41,292 bases of DNA from the IMG/VR virus record IMGVR_UViG_2718217862_000001; one strand, written 5' to 3'. Numbering within the stretch: the stretch's first letter is position 1; the number at the start of each line of letters is the position of its first letter. Under the pieces are notes generated by a model, which was given only the letters and a program-made list of their open reading frames with translations, did not search any database and was not told the DNA's origin. Source of the DNA: a virus (taxonomy: Duplodnaviria > Heunggongvirae > Uroviricota > Caudoviricetes). The translations under genes and the position numbers were made by a program. Of the stretch, positions 1-9,133 are shown in pieces.

Positions 1-888
1 ATGCCACTGCTGGATAAGCTGCGTGAGCAGTACGGGGTCGGACCGCTATGCAGCGAACTGCATATTGCCCCGTCAACGTATTACCACTGTCAGCAACAGC
101 GACATCATCCGGATAAACGCAGTGCCCGTGCGCAGCGCGATGACTGGCTGAAGAAAGAGATACAGCGCGTATACGATGAAAATCACAAGGTATACGGTGT
201 GCGTAAAGTCTGGCGTCAGTTGTTACGGGAAGGTATCAGAGTGGCCAGATGCACTGTGGCACGTCTCATGGCGGTTATGGGACTTGCCGGTGTTCTCCGG
301 GGTAAAAAGGTCCGTACGACCATCAGCCGGAAAGCCGTTGCCGCAGGCGACCGCGTAAACCGTCAGTTCGTGGCAGAACGACCTGACCAGCTGTGGGTGG
401 CTGATTTTACTTACGTCAGCACATGGCGGGGCTTCGTCTATGTGGCGTTCATCATTGATGTGTTTGCCGGATACATCGTGGGGTGGCGGGTCTCATCGTC
501 CATGGAAACGACATTCGTGCTGGATGCACTGGAGCAGGCGTTATGGGCCCGTCGACCGTCCGGCACGGTCCATCACAGTGATAAAGGTTCTCAGTATGTA
601 TCGCTGGCCTACACACAGCGGCTTAAGGAAGCCGGATTACTGGCATCAACAGGAAGTACAGGCGACTCGTATGACAACGCGATGGCGGAGAGCATCAATG
701 GTCTTTACAAAGCGGAGGTAATACACCGTAAGAGCTGGAAAAACCGTGCAGAAGTGGAACTGGCCACACTCACGTGGGTGGACTGGTATAACAATCGACG
801 ATTGCTGGAAAGGCTGGGCCATACTCCTCCGGCAGAAGCAGAAAAAGCTTATTATGCTTCCATCGGAAACGATGATCTGGCAGCCTGA
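1..888 (+). CDS. IS3-family transposase OrfB (DDE catalytic subunit); N-terminus/orfA lies upstream of the window
   Basis: 295-aa ORF with DDE-transposase hallmarks (WVADFTYV...HSDKGSQY...YDNAMAESINGLYKAE); strongly resembles recalled IS629 OrfB. Confidence 0.85.
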   Translation: MPLLDKLREQYGVGPLCSELHIAPSTYYHCQQQRHHPDKRSARAQRDDWLKKEIQRVYDENHKVYGVRKVWRQLLREGIRVARCTVARLMAVMGLAGVLRGKKVRTTISRKAVAAGDRVNRQFVAERPDQLWVADFTYVSTWRGFVYVAFIIDVFAGYIVGWRVSSSMETTFVLDALEQALWARRPSGTVHHSDKGSQYVSLAYTQRLKEAGLLASTGSTGDSYDNAMAESINGLYKAEVIHRKSWKNRAEVELATLTWVDWYNNRRLLERLGHTPPAEAEKAYYASIGNDDLAA

Positions 889-930
889 GTTCACAGATAA
901 AACACTCTCCAGGAAACCCGGGGCGGTTCA
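1..930 (+). mobile_element. IS3-family insertion sequence (IS629-like), 3' part only; right terminal inverted repeat ends near 930
   Basis: Transposase OrfB ORF 1-888 followed by the reverse-complement motif TGAACCGCCCCGGGTTTCCTGGAGAGTG at ~894-930, which I recall as the IS629 terminal repeat; element continues beyond the window start. Confidence 0.7.
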
Positions 931-3900
931 GTAAGGTTTTGCCCGTCTGTTGTTTTTTGCGCATAAAACAGATACGCAGCAGACGTTCCAACCTCAAAAA
1001 CGTTTTGTCGAGTACTGGAACCCCACACCCTGATACTAACTGGTAGTTCTGAATTACCTGAATTAAGTAAAGCAAAACGATTGCCAGTCCCTGTTTGTTT
1101 TCTAATTACTAAATCGGCAGTTGAGTTAACCTCATCTTTGTTGATGGTTAGCGCCTGCGCTGTAGCACCGTTAACAGTGCCACTTAGTAGTTGAACCGCT
1201 CCATCATCGCCATTTAACAGCACTTGAGCGCTGCTTCTGTGGTTTTTCAGGAACAACATTTTGCCTGTGCTTTCTGATGTGCCTACCGACCACGCCGAAT
1301 TGGTTCCAGTGCTATCAACACCGCGCACAGCACAATTCATACTACTGTAATCTGACGTACTCCCCAGCACATCAACACGCCCGCCGCCTAATTTTGATGG
1401 AGTCGTCGAGGTTAACGACCTGACGGTTACATCCTGATTCCATCCTGAAACAACTACCTGACTCCACTCCGTCCAGTTTCCATTGACAACAAAGCGAACG
1501 TATATGCGTTTTGTGTCGCTGCCAATCAGCGTTTGCATGATCGCATAATCTGAACCCGTAGTTTTACGAGTAGATTCTACACGTAGCAAAAAGTTACCGC
1601 TTACGCCGTCAGGCTTATTGGTAATATATGCACCACCTGCAACAGTTTTGCATTGATAGTATTTAACAGATCCAGCCACTGTATTAGCAATGATCAAGTC
1701 GTTTAAATCAATAGTCTTGTTGTCAATGGTTTCCGGCTCGATAGATCCCGCCATACCTGCGTTAAATGTGGCAAAGTCAGAAAAGGTTGTTTTACCGCCT
1801 ACCGTCACCCCGCTATCGAGTTTTGCTTGTGTGATTACTTTGCTGTTTTTTGTGTGGTCAGAATAACTACCAAAATACAAATCACCGTCACCAGCTATAC
1901 CCAGGTATTTTTGATCAACATCATCAACCTTAAACCCAATGGACAAGTTTTTAATTGTGTTGTTGCTCGTTAAAACCAAAGGCGTATGCTGAGATCCTTT
2001 GATGCTTACCGTAGTGTTATCGGAACTGGTGCTTGTGTTTGCAAATTCTGCGGTGGCTGCGCTGATTTTGTAAGTTATTTTTAGATTGCGGGCCTCAACC
2101 CTCCCGTCGTGGCGAACAATAAAATCACCACTTGATTCACCTTTTGTGTTTTTCGCCCTGATGTGGATTTCGCCAAGTGATTCGTTGTTTTCAGGCGACC
2201 AAACAACGCCGCGCTCGCTTCCGTCGTTGTTCATGAACCACAGATGAGCGGTTCCTTTTGCTGATTTTAGCCTGATAGATGGCGTTTCTTTCAATATATC
2301 AAGATCACCAGACATAACATCGCCGGATTTTTTCACCTGCGCATCGTTAGTTACGTTGCCAAGTCCAACATCCGATTTCGACGGCTTGTTTGCCGAGCCG
2401 TATAGCTCATTGATGCTAAAAGTCCCGTTGTTAAGCCGGGCATCGTTGCCGGCATAGATCTTAATCTTCGCGGTTGAGTAGTCGATATTGATCGCTGACC
2501 ACGTATCGCCGCACCGCGAGAATATACCAGAACCGTGGCTATAAATGGTCGCCGTGCTTCCGGTCGGCTTATCACCGCGCCAGAAATGACCACCTTTGTC
2601 ACGCAGAGCTTTTAAGATCTCTACATCGCTCATCTTGCCGTTTGTTGATATCCCGCTACCGCCAAGACCGAAAGCGCCTGTAAGCATAGCATTAGAAAGA
2701 CCCAAATCTGCTTTAGTCGGCTTGTTTAACTGGTCGTAAATCCTTACAACGGGGCTTTCAACATATCCAGAAGGCGCGGCGGTTTGCTTAACAAATCCGT
2801 CTGGAATGTATAATTCCGGGCGTGCCGTCTGCGCCAGCACCGCAACCTTTGCGCCGTTGATAAATGCGCGCTGGAAGGCCCAAACCTCAATAAAGCCGTC
2901 ACCTTTAACCAGGCCGTAACGCATCTGGTTGTTATCGGTCAGCCCGGTTGACCCTAAGCGGCGTATACTCAGATGACGAGAAACATTATCCGCACTAAGC
3001 AAAGAAGGCAGACCGCGCGCCGAGATCTCGATAAAGTCAATGTTTCCGTAAGGGGAGCCGTAGTTACCGGCATTAGTAACCATTAGCGTTACATGGCAAT
3101 TGCCGCTTCCGGGATCGGAAAGTTTCGCGATCTTTATGTAAAAAGACTCATTACCAGTAACAACGGGCCAATCGTATTGCGTCATCGGGCTGACGAGTCC
3201 CCCGACCTTGTCGAGATATTCTTTCGCCTTGTTCTCTGACGCTTTAGCGTTGGTTTCGCTGACCTTTGCTGCTGCCTCACTATTTTTCGCGTTGGTTTCT
3301 GATTTTTTGGCTGCTGTCGCGGAGTTTGCCGATGCAGTTTGTGAGTCTGCTGCCGCCTGTGCGCTGTTATCCGCATTCGTCTCAGACGTTTTTGCGGCCT
3401 TCGCGGAATTTCCTGCTGCCGTTGCCGAGGAAGCTGCACTGCCGGCGCTCGAGGCAGCGCTCGTTTCTGATGATTTTGCCGCCACTTTTGAAGCCGACGC
3501 ATCCCGGGCTGAGGTGGCAGCTTCTGACGCTTTCGTGGTCGCGGTGGATGCAGATGTGGCCGCAGATTTTTGTGATGCTGCGGCATTCATTTCCGACGTT
3601 TTCGCTGCACCGGCACTGGTGGCTGCCGCGCTTTTTGAAGACTCTGCGGCGGCAGCACTTTTTGATGCTTCAGTGGCCTTTGTTGATGCCGTTCCTGCGC
3701 TGGAAGACGCTGACTGAGCCGACGACGCGGCCTGTCCGGCTGACGTGCTGGCTGCACGTGCTGAGCCTGCAGCATCAGTCGCACGGGTTGCCGCCTCACG
3801 GGCTGATGTGCTGGCATCGCTGGCTGACTTCTTCGCGGCTGCCGTGTTCTGTGCCACCGCGGACGCGTTACGCGCCACCTCTTCCACCATCAGTTCAAAA

Positions 3901-4214
3901 CGGCGCAGTGCCTCAGGACGGGCATCATCCTCCGTCATGGCACCGAGAAAATCATTCAGCGTACCGGGTCGGGAATCTTCATACACGGTGATGGTCCCGG
4001 CATGTGACGGCGGGAATCCTTCCACCAACAGAATAACGCTGTACTGACCGTACTCAACGTCCATGCTGTAACGCCCGGCTTCATCCGGATTTTCTGAGGC
4101 CAGCGTGTTCACCACCACCGTGGTACTGTTACGTTTTGCTTTCAGCTGGATTGTGCAGTTCTGTACCGGTTTTCCTGTGCCGTCTTTCAGTACACCTGAA
4201 ATCTTTACTGCCAT
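891..4214 (-). CDS. stf: Side tail fibre protein Stf, disrupted at its 3' end by the IS element (last ~13 codons are read-through into the IS inverted repeat)
   Basis: N-terminus MAVKISGVLKDGTGKPVQNCTIQLK matches lambda Stf as recalled; long Ala/Ser-rich central repeat; ORF stop coincides with IS end; ATG at 4214 preferred over GTG at 4220. Confidence 0.75.
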   Translation of the reverse strand: MAVKISGVLKDGTGKPVQNCTIQLKAKRNSTTVVVNTLASENPDEAGRYSMDVEYGQYSVILLVEGFPPSHAGTITVYEDSRPGTLNDFLGAMTEDDARPEALRRFELMVEEVARNASAVAQNTAAAKKSASDASTSAREAATRATDAAGSARAASTSAGQAASSAQSASSSAGTASTKATEASKSAAAAESSKSAAATSAGAAKTSEMNAAASQKSAATSASTATTKASEAATSARDASASKVAAKSSETSAASSAGSAASSATAAGNSAKAAKTSETNADNSAQAAADSQTASANSATAAKKSETNAKNSEAAAKVSETNAKASENKAKEYLDKVGGLVSPMTQYDWPVVTGNESFYIKIAKLSDPGSGNCHVTLMVTNAGNYGSPYGNIDFIEISARGLPSLLSADNVSRHLSIRRLGSTGLTDNNQMRYGLVKGDGFIEVWAFQRAFINGAKVAVLAQTARPELYIPDGFVKQTAAPSGYVESPVVRIYDQLNKPTKADLGLSNAMLTGAFGLGGSGISTNGKMSDVEILKALRDKGGHFWRGDKPTGSTATIYSHGSGIFSRCGDTWSAINIDYSTAKIKIYAGNDARLNNGTFSINELYGSANKPSKSDVGLGNVTNDAQVKKSGDVMSGDLDILKETPSIRLKSAKGTAHLWFMNNDGSERGVVWSPENNESLGEIHIRAKNTKGESSGDFIVRHDGRVEARNLKITYKISAATAEFANTSTSSDNTTVSIKGSQHTPLVLTSNNTIKNLSIGFKVDDVDQKYLGIAGDGDLYFGSYSDHTKNSKVITQAKLDSGVTVGGKTTFSDFATFNAGMAGSIEPETIDNKTIDLNDLIIANTVAGSVKYYQCKTVAGGAYITNKPDGVSGNFLLRVESTRKTTGSDYAIMQTLIGSDTKRIYVRFVVNGNWTEWSQVVVSGWNQDVTVRSLTSTTPSKLGGGRVDVLGSTSDYSSMNCAVRGVDSTGTNSAWSVGTSESTGKMLFLKNHRSSAQVLLNGDDGAVQLLSGTVNGATAQALTINKDEVNSTADLVIRKQTGTGNRFALLNSGNSELPVSIRVWGSSTRQNVFEVGTSAAYLFYAQKTTDGQNLTEPPRVSWRVFYL

Positions 4215-4221
4215 ATTCACC

Positions 4222-4278: not shown

Positions 4279-4878
4279 TCAGAATTTATAACCGACACCC
4301 ACGATGAAACCGTCAGTGCGCCAGTCGCCACTGCCGGAACCTTCATAAGCGACATCAACGGCCACGGATTCGGTCGGGTTAAACTGCACGCCAGCCCCCC
4401 ACGCCAGAGACGTGTTGCTGTGGCGACCGTCATCACTTCCGGTCAGCACGTCGTGCGTTTTCCCCTTGTTGTCAGTTACGCGGAGATAATCCCCGGAGAA
4501 AGTCGACACACGGCTGTAAGCCATACCCGCCATCGCATACGCGCTGAACCATTCATTCACGCGCACAGACGGCCCCGCCATCACGCTGAACCAGCGGTTA
4601 CGCACGGAATCTTCATGCCAGCGGGTATCGCTGTAATGCGTTTTTTGCTCATCTTTGGCATTGGCATAACTGAATGACGTCACCAGCCCCAGCGTGTCCG
4701 TAAATTCATAACGGTATTTCACGTTAATCCCGTTCAGATTATCGCTGCCGGGGACGTTCGTACGGGCATGAAGATACCCTGCGCTCAGTGTGGACTGGTG
4801 TTCAGACGCCCATGCAGGCGTACCTGATACGGCCAGACAGATGGCTGCGGACAAAATAGCTGCATAAACTTTACGCAT
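4279..4878 (-). CDS. lom: Lom outer-membrane protein (Ail/Lom family beta-barrel)
   Basis: 199 aa, signal peptide MRKVYAAILSAAICLAVSGTPAWA, C-terminal GYKF; position after J as in lambda. Confidence 0.85.
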   Translation of the reverse strand: MRKVYAAILSAAICLAVSGTPAWASEHQSTLSAGYLHARTNVPGSDNLNGINVKYRYEFTDTLGLVTSFSYANAKDEQKTHYSDTRWHEDSVRNRWFSVMAGPSVRVNEWFSAYAMAGMAYSRVSTFSGDYLRVTDNKGKTHDVLTGSDDGRHSNTSLAWGAGVQFNPTESVAVDVAYEGSGSGDWRTDGFIVGVGYKF

Positions 4879-4945: not shown

Positions 4946-7900
4946 TCAGCTAATCGTGATGCCTGCAGTGGCTTTCTTCATCACCACAACCAGCAAATCG
5001 CTGATACTGGCTGTGGGATACCAGTTATTTACCAGCCATGCTGACACCGAAAACTCCAGTGTCATGTGACCGTGACCGGCAGGCATATCAATAACACCAC
5101 TGTAAATCAGCGTATTATCCAGCGCGGTACGGTTATAAATTTCAGCACCGTTTTTCCGTACTATCAGGCGGCATGACGAATAAATATCGTTATTCTCCCG
5201 CTCATGTTTAGCGCCGCTGAATGCCACCGCCGGAATAACAATCTGCCGGTCAAACGGCTGATCGTCATAAACCCTGACGGTGATGGTCCCTGATGGCCAC
5301 CGTTCCGGTGCACGGGAGTCCCGGGGGAAAGCTTTGCCCACTGTTTTAACGAGATCGCCTTCAATCTGGTTGGCGGACAGTTTTCCCAGAACCCGACAGT
5401 TCTCGTTAATCGTGACGTTGTTGAGCGTCCCGGCGTTCGCATTCACGTTACCGCTGATATCGGCATTTTTCGCCGTCAGCCGCCCGTCCGGTGTCAGGGA
5501 AAATACCGGAGGATTACCGCCGCTGGTAATGGTGGGAGCCGTCAGGCGTTTCAGGAACACTTCGTTCATGAATATCTGATCGCCCTGCCCAACAAACATC
5601 GGCTTTGTGTTGCCATTCGCAGGATTAATCATCGCAATCCTGTCTGCCGCCAGCAGCACCTGACTCTGCATGCCGTCAGGGGTGTTCTCAATACCGGCAC
5701 CAATACCCGCGATATAAAGGCGTCCGTCCTGCATCTGCTGCAGCTTCACAGCCCACATGCTGTTCAGGTTATTATTTGTATCAACCTGAACCTTCTGTAT
5801 CTGCTGAATTGCCGCACTCTGGTCTTCCAGTTTCTTATTGACGGTCTGCGTGATTTCATTGCTGACATCCGTAATGGACGTCCTGATTTCAGCCAGGTCA
5901 GGCGCAAGCTGACCGTTATCAATCTGCGTCCACAGCTCCTGAGCCAGATGGGTTTTCCCTATCTCGCCTTTGAAAAAATCCAGATAACCGGATGCATCAT
6001 CACTCGGCTGACCAACAGCCTCCACGAATGCCGATTTGCCAACGGTGTTCACACTGCGGATATAAAAGTAATAATCATGGCCCGGTTTGATATTGATACT
6101 GGCGGCTATCCAGTACAGCGCCGTGCCAAGATAGCGTGCTGTGGTTTCAACCTGCCTGATATCGGTAATCCGCTTTTCCGAGAACCAGAACTCAAACTGT
6201 ACCGTCGGATCATAAACCGCAAGATGCGGCGTGGCGGTTATCTGAAAATAGCCCGGCGTCAGCTCAATCCGCGACGGCGCTGCCGGTGCGGCAATCCGGA
6301 ACGATACCGACGCCGGATCGCCCTGCTGCCCCCACGCATTTACTGCCCGGACTGTCAGCCTGTAGTTCCCCAGCGCCAGTTGTGTGAAGCGGTAAGTGGT
6401 TTCCGTCGTCCGGGCCGTGCTGACCAGCCACTCACTGCCGTCATCCGCTGTTACGGTCAGACGGAGCAGGAAGCTCACGCCCTTCACCACCTTCGGCGTG
6501 TCCCAGCGCGCCAGCACCTGATATTCCCCGCTGTCTGCGGTGACTTCGGCAGTCAGGTGCTGCACCGCTGGCGGCGTGACACCATTCACCGTGCCGCTCT
6601 GGTCGCCGTCAAAGTGCGCCCCGTTATCCACGATGGCTTCTTTTTCCGGTACATGCTGCACGGCGGTGATGGCATACGTGCCGTCATCGTTCTCACGGAT
6701 ACTCACACAGCGGAACAGGCGCTGGCGCAGCGTCGGCAACTTCAGCCCCCACACGCTGTATTCTGCAACACCATCAGGAACCCGGCTCACTTTCACCTTC
6801 ACGCCGTCGGTGACGGACTGGACCTCCACGCTGACCGGATTACCCTGACCGTCAACCAGGCTTATCAGCGTGGTACCGGAGGATGGCAGCGTGATTTCAC
6901 GGTCGAGCGTCAGCGTCCGGGTCTGGCTGTTCACCGCCAGCACGCGCCCGCCGGTGCTGATACCCGCATAGTCATCATCGCAGATTTCAATGACATCCCC
7001 CGGTACATGGCGAAGCCCTTCCGCACCCACGCTGAAGTCCACGGTCTGCGTTTCCAGCAGTTCCGTTTTAATCAGCCACAGCCCGGCGCGGTGCGCCTGC
7101 CCCCGGCTGGTACAGCCAAAGGCATCCATCTTCGTGACGTTACGACCGTAACGGGCAATGGCCTGCGTATCTTCAACAAGCTCTGTCGCCGTCTCCCAGC
7201 CGTTGTCCGGGTCAATCCAGTTCACCTCAACGGCATTATGGCGGTCTTTCAGGGCGCTGAAGCTGTAGCGGAACGGCGCGCCATCATCCGGCATCACCAC
7301 ATTACTGCGGTTATAGGTCCACACCTTATCTGATGGTCGGTCCTGCACGAACGTCAGCGTCTGCCCGTTCCATACCGGCATACAGCGCATCGCCGAGCAG
7401 AAATCACTGAGCACATCCCACGCCTTGCGCTGTGTGGTCAGGTACGCATTACAGGTGATGCGCGGCTCCGTGCCGCCAAAGCCGTCCGGCACCGACTGGT
7501 CGCAGTACTGGCCGATGACATACAGCGCCCATTTATCCACATCCGCCGCACCAAGACGTTTCCCCATGCCGTAGCGCGGATGGGTCAGCATATCCCACAG
7601 ACACCAGGCCATGTTGTTGCTGTATGCCGGTTTAAACGTTCCGTCCCAGATACCGCTGTATTGCCGCGTCTGCGGGTTATAGTTCGACGGCACCTGCAGA
7701 ATGCGCCCGCGCAGATGATAATTACGGCTCACCTGCTGGCTGCCGAACTGCTCCGAATCCACCTGTACGCCGACCAGTGCCGTGTTCGGGTAGCACTGTT
7801 TCACATCGATGATTTCGGTGTATGACGACCAGAGCGTTTTGTTCTGCAGCTGGTCTGTGGTGCTGTCCGGCGTCATCCTGCGCATCCGGATATTAAACGG

Positions 7901-8425
7901 GCGCGGCGGCAGGTTATCCACCACCACCGAGGCCAGATACTGCGAGGTGGTTTTGCCCTTAATGGTGATGTCTTTTTCCGTCACCCAGCCACCATTACGC
8001 TGTATCTGAACCAGCAGGCGAACTTCCGACGGATTCCGGTCCCCCTTTGAGGTGGTTTCCACCAGTGCCTGCACACCGAAGGTAAAGCGCAGACGGTCGA
8101 TGTTTGCAGACGTGATGGTGCGGGTGATCGGCGTGTCATATTTCACTTCCGTACCCAGCACCGTCTCGGAGCCGGAGGATTCAAACCCCTCCGGCGGTGT
8201 CTGCTCCTGCTCACCGGCACGGAACACCACCGTGACACCGGAGATGTTGGTATTCCCCTCAGTGTCCAGCACCGGCGTACTGTTCAGCAGCACGCTTTTT
8301 AATCCATCCACCGGACCTTCAACCGGCCCTTCACTGATGGCGTCTATCACGCTCAGCATCTGGGATGATTTCAGGTTGTCCTTCGCTTCGCGCGGGGTAT
8401 GCCCCTTACTGCTGCCTTTACCCAT
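4946..8425 (-). CDS. J: Tail tip / host specificity protein J
   Basis: 1159 aa; overall resemblance to lambda gpJ (fibronectin-like repeats, C-terminal receptor-binding region); gene order I-J-lom. Confidence 0.9.
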
Positions 8426-8485
8426 TCCTCACGCTCCAGAAACGACAAAACCGCCCTGAGGCGGTTTCACATAAAACGTTTTGCA

Positions 8486-9133
8486 TCAGCGACCAATCAC
8501 CACAACCTGACCACCGTCCCCTTCGTCTGCCGTGCTGATCTCCTGAGAAGCCACCCGCGACCCCACGCGCATTTCACCGTACAGAACGGGCAGAACATTG
8601 CCCTGGGCAACCATGTTATCCAGTGAGGAGAAATAGGTGTTCTGCTTACCGTTATCCGTTGTCTGTGTACGGGGAGTTCTGGCTTTCGGTGCCAGCATCT
8701 GCGCCACACCGCCAAGGATCATACTGGCCCCCGCAGCATACATGCCCGATACAGCCGCAGCTCCCAGCCAGCCCACAGGGTTCCACCACGCCACTGCAAT
8801 CAGCGCCGCACCCAGCACCGCCTGAAACACACCGCCACTTTTTGCTCCCGCAAGACGCGGAACGATGTGGATCACGGCACCATTTTTCAGCGGCTCATTA
8901 AGACGGGCTGATAATTCGTTTTCGCCTGCATCACGCCCGGCAATGCGCACCTGATACCAGCCATCGCTCAGTTTCTGACGAAACGCCGGGATCTGCATGG
9001 CCAGCGCCCGGATGGCTTCGGCCCCCGTTTTCACACGAAGGTCGATGCGGCGGCCAAATCGTTGCAAATCCCCGTAAAGGCAGATACGTGCCATGCCCGG
9101 TGACGCCAGAGGGAGTGTGTGCGTCGCTGCCAT
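8486..9133 (-). CDS. I: Tail assembly protein I
   Basis: 215 aa, hydrophobic central segment, position between K and J. Confidence 0.8.
   Translation of the reverse strand: MAATHTLPLASPGMARICLYGDLQRFGRRIDLRVKTGAEAIRALAMQIPAFRQKLSDGWYQVRIAGRDAGENELSARLNEPLKNGAVIHIVPRLAGAKSGGVFQAVLGAALIAVAWWNPVGWLGAAAVSGMYAAGASMILGGVAQMLAPKARTPRTQTTDNGKQNTYFSSLDNMVAQGNVLPVLYGEMRVGSRVASQEISTADEGDGGQVVVIGR

Follow-up and report, generated by a model that had tools for sequence, protein, structure and literature searches.

IS629 interrupts a side tail fibre gene in a lambdoid prophage and cuts it off from its predicted folding chaperone

The window, by which we mean the whole 41,292-nucleotide stretch of DNA analysed here, belongs to a lambdoid prophage that E. 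coli carries between potB and potC. It opens inside an insertion sequence that converges on a truncated side tail fibre gene, beyond which lie lom and J. The features are given below in window coordinates, with positions in the source locus (L001) where they are needed.

1..930, plus strand: 3' 930 bp (positions 381-1310) of a 1310-bp IS629, identical to L001 8001-8930
1-888, plus strand, TGA stop at 886-888: orfB part of the IS629 transposase, with a DDE integrase-core domain (Pfam rve and HTH_21)
906..930, unstranded: right terminal inverted repeat of IS629, ending ...CGGTTCA; 23/25 positions match the left inverted repeat
931..933, unstranded: GTA, the 3-bp target-site duplication as it stands on the right flank of the IS; its partner adjoins the left end of the element outside the window, at L001 7618-7620
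891..4214, minus strand: truncated side tail fibre gene stf, an ORF of 1107 codons (1095 native and 12 IS-encoded; Pfam phage_tail_N)
891..930, minus strand: stretch of the stf ORF supplied by the IS, namely the final nucleotide of the Thr1095 codon, then 12 foreign codons (EPPRVSWRVFYL) and TGA (891-893)
3813..4214, minus strand: N-terminal tail-attachment (collar) domain of Stf, residues 1-134, intact (PF08400 profile positions 1-134/134)
4279..4878, minus strand: lom (Ail/Lom outer-membrane protein), directly upstream of stf (Pfam Ail_Lom, E=3.5e-125; RefSeq)
4946..8425, minus strand: J, central tail fibre or host-specificity gene, an open 1159-codon ORF (RefSeq 'phage attachment tail tip protein J')

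We assign the element to IS629 of the IS3 family, with the RefSeq label serving as a proxy for the ISfinder reference sequence; most of the genomes that have this copy give it the name 'IS3-like element IS629 family transposase', and a neighbouring copy in L001 bears the identical IS629-family label. The complete element occupies L001 7621-8930 in the source genome and is 100% identical over its 1310 bp to many plasmid copies. The window starts at the ATG of orfB, with orfA and the left inverted repeat lying outside it. The orfB product matches rve (E=8e-28), HTH_21 (E=3e-18) and NCBIfam transpos_IS3 (NF033516; 314 bits against a cut-off of 160), and RefSeq joins orfA and orfB into one CDS with a programmed (-1) frameshift. 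An ALIL pseudoknot (Rfam RF01497, 120 bits) spans L001 7956-8072, which corresponds to window 1-72 plus the sequence upstream, the window itself holding the orfB side alone of the frameshift region. The terminal repeats are imperfect and 25 bp long, with termini TGAACCG...CGGTTCA (5'-TG...CA-3'), and the right end of the element (...GGGGCGGTTCA) falls at window position 930. In its 1310-bp length, -1 frameshift, ALIL pseudoknot, TG...CA ends and 3-bp duplication this is the same element as the IS629 (isoforms IS1203 and IS3411) of O157:H7 lambdoid prophages. In four O157 genomes, 62% of IS629 copies were found in prophages, with duplications of 3-4 bp (PMC3271280), and the insertion described here is in keeping with that preference for prophage DNA.

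The interrupted gene is identified as a lambda-type side tail fibre gene from its collar domain and the gene order J-lom-stf. The Pfam phage_tail_N profile (PF08400) matches its product with E=1.5e-71, and residues 1-94 align to the collar domain of Ur-lambda Stf (PDB 9e7m/9mgh, E=1.7e-51; PMC12617516), to which the collar is nearly identical. Although the ORF can be read from a GTG (891-4220, minus strand), we place the true start at the ATG at 4214, because the product then begins MAVKISG, as in lambda Stf. At its other end, the ORF enters the right end of the IS for 40 nt. Residues 1-1095 are native, residue 1096 is the first to differ from the intact allele, and the protein diverges from all 27 homologues in our alignment (A1) exactly at the IS-derived end. 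An earlier sequence-only reading had described this run into the terminal repeat correctly, counting about 13 IS-encoded codons where there are 12, and had rightly placed the stf stop close to the convergent transposase stop, at a spacing of 3 bp rather than the 2 nt (889-890) that separate them. RefSeq lists the truncated stf of the source genome as an ordinary CDS and not as a pseudogene.

The missing 3' end of stf lies directly beyond the other IS flank, outside the window, at L001 7143-7620. When the IS and one GTA are removed in silico, the two parts join into a single continuous stf ORF of 1252 codons. The same arrangement exists naturally in strain EC11, which has an empty site (...CAAAACCTTACTGTAAACGG...) with a single TAC/GTA and flanks that are 100% identical to the source locus without gaps; its stf ORF is continuous over 1254 codons from the GTG, equal to 1252 from the ATG, and the restored stf is 100% identical to this uninterrupted allele. 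The Stf of phage Ayreon is likewise 1252 aa long and 87% identical to the restored protein with no gaps, and 27/27 aligned homologues run beyond the break into QSSDRxLK... (alignment A1), none of the intact proteins ending at the same residue without IS sequence. The claim of the sequence-only reading that an IS3-family, IS629-like insertion cuts the 3' end of stf is thus borne out by the anatomy of the element, by the GTA duplication and stf 3' end recovered at its other flank, and by the empty-site allele and intact homologues. We propose that a complete 1310-bp IS629 transposed into codon 1095/1096 of a 1252-codon stf, duplicating 3 bp (GTA). Annotations that split stf in IS-free genomes could be taken for a second lesion in the gene. 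We rejected this candidate and regard the split as an annotation artefact, because the DNA of those genomes is 100% identical to the window without gaps and their ORF is continuous.

The same reading had further supposed that the insertion displaced the distal receptor-binding tip of the fibre and any tfa chaperone gene, and here our results differ. The displaced 157 codons comprise the final 13 residues of the mature fibre and a 144-residue Peptidase_S74 domain, predicted to be a self-cleaving intramolecular chaperone. PF13884 (Peptidase_S74) matches the displaced fragment alone with E=1.5e-17 (64 bits against a cut-off of 22) and the restored protein with 60 bits at its C-terminus (residues 1111-1162, GTG numbering), whereas a Pfam scan of the window's own stf ORF does not return it. 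A predicted catalytic Ser-Lys dyad, S1109/K1114, lies in the motif SDRRLK with i/i+5 spacing, both residues being at least 90% conserved in alignment A1. Over the SSDRR(L/I)K motif the displaced part also aligns with the distal subunit of the long tail fibre of phage S16 (PDB 6f45), and the chaperone is predicted to end in a C-terminal coiled coil. The part of stf that lies upstream of the IS within the window still encodes nearly the whole of the mature fibre (1095/1108 residues), its distal region included, and the break falls 13 residues before the predicted self-cleavage site. As for tfa, a full-length Caudo_TAP (Tfa) domain is absent downstream of stf, where a match covers profile positions 86-130 of 131 only; this C-terminal remnant of 44-56 codons is no functional gene and is equally short in the IS-free genomes EC11 and HUM3355.

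We expect the receptor-binding domain to lie upstream of the break, judging from the domain order, the source annotations ('pyocin knob domain-containing S74 family peptidase') and weak structural matches. The latter came from an AlphaFold2 monomer of an intact homologue (P0002, from a 28-row alignment) that was poor (pLDDT 59, pTM 0.27); a Foldseek search of the PDB with this model gave weak matches to R-pyocin fibres 6cl5/6cl6/6ct8 (E 2.5e-3 to 6.6e-3, TM <=0.28), as well as weak matches to phage baseplates. The restored Stf matched no family in an NCBIfam scan.

Domains of the S74 class occupy the same C-terminal position in the endosialidase endoNF, the T5 L-shaped tail fibre pb1 and phage S16 gp37. 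They use a Ser-Lys dyad (S911/K916 in endoNF), cleave themselves in a manner dependent on trimerisation, and help to assemble the domains upstream of them (PMC8326128). The SDxxxK dyad predicted here has the i/i+5 spacing of the endoNF pair, and, as in known S74 domains, it is followed by a long helix with a predicted coiled coil, the Pfam match being well above its cut-off. Unlike in endoNF, pb1 and gp37, the S74 domain, here predicted to cleave itself, is separated from its fibre by the IS and cannot act in cis. A fibre of this class would depend for its trimerisation on its own C-terminal chaperone, which acts in cis and removes itself by cleavage afterwards. With the upstream part of stf now reading into the right end of the IS and stopping after 12 foreign codons, and the downstream 157 codons stranded beyond it, the truncated Stf would keep its collar, shaft and almost all of the distal region, and yet its folding into a functional trimer is expected to fail. 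Virions, if there are any, would in that case be without working side fibres and would adsorb via J alone, like laboratory lambda. J itself is open over 1159 codons, and the essential receptor-binding protein is therefore unaffected. While the structure of the insertion is observed directly, it is likely that the truncated fibre cannot fold and that virions would depend on J. Taken as a whole, an IS629 insertion in stf that cuts off the chaperone of a fibre then expected not to fold is the best explanation of the locus, and we hold it with high confidence; no observation speaks against its structural part.

This consequence has a close precedent in lambda, whose side fibres are dispensable and serve to speed adsorption (PMC12617516). 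The stf frameshift of lambda PaPa, relative to Ur-lambda, is likewise a lesion in stf that abolishes the side fibres and leaves J-mediated infection intact (PMC12617516), the corresponding loss here being inferred. The lesions differ in kind, ours being an IS insertion rather than a frameshift, and so do the fibres: the distal two-thirds of the present fibre are unrelated to those of lambda, whose DNA matches no more than 25% of the gene, and the lambda fibre uses a separate Tfa chaperone where this one is predicted to carry an intramolecular S74 chaperone.

The alternative that fares best, though we consider it unlikely, is that the truncated fibre still functions, having lost only a chaperone that is normally discarded. 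The intact collar and the retention of 1095/1108 mature residues, with the break just short of the predicted cleavage site, speak in its favour. Against it, characterised S74 C-terminal domains drive trimerisation of the sequence upstream and are released only afterwards (PMC8326128), and 12 unrelated residues stand in place of the final 13 of the mature fibre. Nor would the stranded chaperone readily act in trans: we considered its separate expression and rejected it, as neither an in-frame start codon ahead of the S74 motif nor a promoter-like site was found for the fragment.

We give a distinctly smaller chance to a reversible side-fibre switch, in which precise removal of IS629, for instance by the IS-excision enhancer IEE, would make the empty-site genomes revertants rather than ancestors. 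IEE promotes IS629 excision and restored an interrupted lacZ in STEC (PMC9943667, PMC9397093), and the 100% identical flanks of empty-site genomes are compatible with such an event. An ancestral empty site explains the same data equally well and more simply, however, and the IS at this site in one strain, reduced to a 260-bp internal-deletion remnant, resembles decay rather than switching. If a switch did exist, side-fibre production could come back on, toggling phage adsorption or host range. The slim chance we allow here extends to a related idea, that the 646-bp segment carrying the S74 chaperone and tfa vestige between two inverted IS629 copies is a composite module shuffled between fibre genes; the evidence favours neither version.

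The second of these IS629 copies (L001 3395-6974) lies in inverted orientation 646 bp from the first. Its proximity, together with the fact that repeated IS elements are a classic cause of misassembly, might suggest an IS-mediated deletion or inversion, or an assembly artefact. Each copy nevertheless has its own matching 3-bp duplication (GTA for the first, GTT for the second), the three non-IS segments are colinear with EC11 and 100% identical to it, with no loss and no inversion, and the junctions recur in independently assembled complete genomes (173 for one, 176 for the other), all of which leaves this explanation highly improbable. The weakest proposal, that stf naturally ends here with the IS merely downstream of a complete gene, draws on the length of the ORF (1107 codons) and its RefSeq status, and is refuted, in sequence terms, by the empty-site allele and alignment A1: the IS supplies the final 12 codons as well as the stop, the otherwise identical EC11 gene goes on for 157 codons further, and the 27 homologues and Ayreon Stf all pass the break and carry PF13884.

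The insertion is an ordinary knockout of a non-essential prophage gene by IS629, a common mobile element of E. coli. Existing annotation of about 175 public genomes already names the pieces, and the case matters little beyond bookkeeping. It does illustrate how complete a fibre ORF may look when it runs into the end of an IS, as its RefSeq entry as an ordinary CDS attests, and that what is lost by such a truncation depends on the architecture of the fibre, here a predicted self-cleaving folding chaperone and not the receptor-binding tip. A GenBank record deposited as a phage, ON470612.1 (vB_EcoS-640R1), was considered as a viable IS-bearing phage and rejected, being a partial genome that includes the host genes mfd, lolCDE, nagK and cobB; the sequence was cut out of a contig as a prophage region, carries no evidence of induction, and finishes precisely at the stf stop codon that the IS supplies.

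Both IS-stf junctions occur in about 175 (173 and 176 per junction) of 5426 complete E. coli genomes. Such a junction is not due to chance, because the IS is identical over its full length to many other copies and the junctions recur in so many genomes. The likeness to the O157:H7 setting concerns the element and its target. Most of the carriers are clinical isolates from humans, and many bear names of the style usual in carbapenem-resistant collections; for this group the insertion provides a clean clonal marker.

The insertion sequence (IS) that enters the window is a simple insertion into the side tail fibre gene (stf). Both IS ends are flanked by GTA, and when the IS plus one GTA is deleted in silico, the flanks meet in frame as a single long ORF. 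The missing stf 3' end and the GTA target-site duplication, which the sequence-only reading had proposed seeking at the opposite IS flank, were both found. The locus is also present without the IS in strain EC11 (NZ_CP060938.1), where three segments match the source genome in the same order at 100% identity without gaps, and where the stf ORF is uninterrupted over 1252 codons from its ATG. Stf of phage Ayreon (host E. coli K12 per its record) is 1252 aa and aligns gaplessly at 87% identity. A homologue search with the last 404 native Stf residues (E ≤ 1e-5) returned 216 proteins, with PF13884 carried by most of the 120 listed. All 27 homologues aligned (27/27) extend beyond the break into ...VNG.(V/I)NCTTLNQSSDRxLK... 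and none ends at the break residue, which bears out the earlier proposal that the IS truncates stf.

In the IS-free alleles of EC11 (locus L003 3142-6900) and HUM3355 (locus L002 3142-6900), RefSeq annotates the intact stf as two pieces, an 'incomplete' N-terminal pseudogene and a separate downstream CDS, divided at a point that differs between the two genomes. The EC11 DNA is gap-free and its ORF continuous despite this annotation, which is probably an artefact of the Ala/Ser-rich low-complexity region.

The ORF at window 1-888 (+) encodes an integrase-core (rve) domain and matches an IS3-family transposase model above cut-off. In the source genome the complete IS measures 1310 bp (L001, the source locus, 7621-8930), and its positions 381-1310 correspond to window 1-930. 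It has imperfect 25-bp terminal repeats (23/25 matching) with TG...CA ends and an orfA/orfB programmed frameshift with an ALIL pseudoknot, and RefSeq names it an IS629-family transposase in most carrier genomes. Prophage insertion of IS629 with 3-4 bp duplications is well known (PMC3271280).

On the minus strand, the stf ORF starts at 4220 (GTG) or 4214 (ATG) and stops at 891-893; the ATG is the true start, because the product then begins MAVKISG, as in lambda Stf. Its N-terminus is a prophage tail-fibre N-terminal domain (PF08400, E=1.5e-71), and residues 1-94 are nearly identical in alignment to the collar structure of the Ur-lambda side fibre (PDB 9e7m/9mgh). Together with lom and J, the central tail fibre gene, situated upstream, these matches mark the ORF as the stf gene of a lambdoid prophage. 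As first described, this ORF runs into the IS, which it reaches at window 930, though the small counts differ: the IS-derived end of the ORF comprises one base of Thr1095, 12 codons (EPPRVSWRVFYL) rather than about 13, and the stop, and the convergent stf and transposase stop codons lie 2 nt, not 3 bp, apart. The Ala/Ser/Thr-rich repetitive shaft (window 3180-3990, about residues 110-335) generates several long spurious ORFs, on the opposite strand as well as in other frames, including:

3266-3991, + strand, spurious ORF of 241 aa
3208-3717, + strand, spurious ORF of 169 aa

The window is 100% identical to E. coli WCHEC005784 (NZ_CP028578.2), in which it spans, from IS to integrase, a prophage between potB and potC. 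From the RefSeq annotation of this identical genome, which includes the following features, the prophage looks otherwise largely complete from integrase to stf, a few small pseudogenes excepted.

23528-23821, iss (increased serum survival lipoprotein)
27604-27679, tRNA-Ile gene
30528-30683, hokD
36963-37151, dicB
40174-41292, integrase
about 25789-26766 and 31293-31609, small pseudogenes

The right junction occurs in 176 and the left in 173 of 5426 complete E. coli genomes; this recurrence rules out an assembly artefact, and the counts point to clonal inheritance of the insertion. Strain 11899A_LBHALD (NZ_CP130447.1), which lacks the second IS629 described below, has at exactly this position in stf, flanked by the identical duplication, just a 260-bp IS629 remnant (L008, the locus in that strain, 3426-3685). 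This remnant fuses IS positions 1-132 to 1181-1310; it is a MITE-like derivative formed by internal deletion, or else a collapse in the assembly.

Beyond the window, at L001 7143-7620, the stranded stf fragment codes for 157 residues. By Pfam, a Peptidase_S74 'chaperone of endosialidase' domain begins at Ser1109 (E=1.5e-17). Its SSDRR(L/I)K motif can be aligned with the distal long-tail-fibre subunit of phage S16 (PDB 6f45), and Ser1109 and Lys1114, each at least 90% conserved among homologues, are spaced i/i+5, as in the S911/K916 dyad of endoNF. In the Peptidase_S74 family, the C-terminal domain trimerises upstream domains and then self-cleaves (PMC8326128). Because this domain would likewise cleave off after assembly, the IS is predicted to remove the entire 144-residue chaperone together with 13 residues of the mature fibre, and not the receptor-binding tip that had been thought displaced. 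Monomer modelling with AlphaFold gave a poor structure, with weak fold matches to R-pyocin fibres. The insertion itself is an ordinary, previously annotated event: the public annotation of carrier genomes has entries for the IS, for the truncated fibre and for the partial 3' fragment, and S74 chaperone domains of fibres are already well characterised (PMC8326128). The sole substantive addition here is the corrected account of what the truncation removes.

Lacking its chaperone in cis, the 1107-aa product would be expected to fail to trimerise; the stranded fragment has no in-frame start upstream of the catalytic motif, and no promoter-like site was found. Phage made from the IS-carrying prophage would probably be viable and lack side fibres, since J is intact in the window and since the side fibres of lambda speed up adsorption but can be dispensed with (PMC12617516); laboratory lambda is a classic precedent for lost stf function (PMC12617516). 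We rejected ON470612.1 (GenBank 'Escherichia phage vB_EcoS-640R1, partial genome') as evidence of viability. This record includes the host genes mfd, ycfT, lolCDE, nagK and cobB and its end coincides exactly with the stop that the IS supplies to the truncated stf. Judged from its content, it is a prophage region from a contig that broke at the IS and not the genome of a packaged phage.

A displaced tfa (tail fibre assembly chaperone) gene had also been suggested, but no functional tfa was displaced: the downstream 'tfa' is a C-terminal vestige of 44-56 codons (Caudo_TAP profile positions 86-130 of 131), equally vestigial in IS-free genomes. A second, inverted IS629 lies outside the window, 646 bp past the first (L001 3395-6974); it has its own 3-bp duplication (GTT) and disrupts the final codons of the tfa vestige. 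The stranded stf 3' end and the vestige are bracketed by the two inverted copies. An insertion of about 2.26 kb interrupts the second copy near IS position 790; it encodes a group II intron reverse transcriptase (ltrA), and Rfam matches Intron_gpII within it at L001 3910-3996. The stretch between the second IS629 and potB (L001 2332-3322) holds a further C-terminal piece of tfa, a DinI pseudogene with a frameshift and a gene for a SAM-dependent methyltransferase. The tfa fragments at L001 2351-2467 and 6982-7098 form a 117-bp repeat of 89% identity, and these remnants look like the residue of past fibre-module exchanges.
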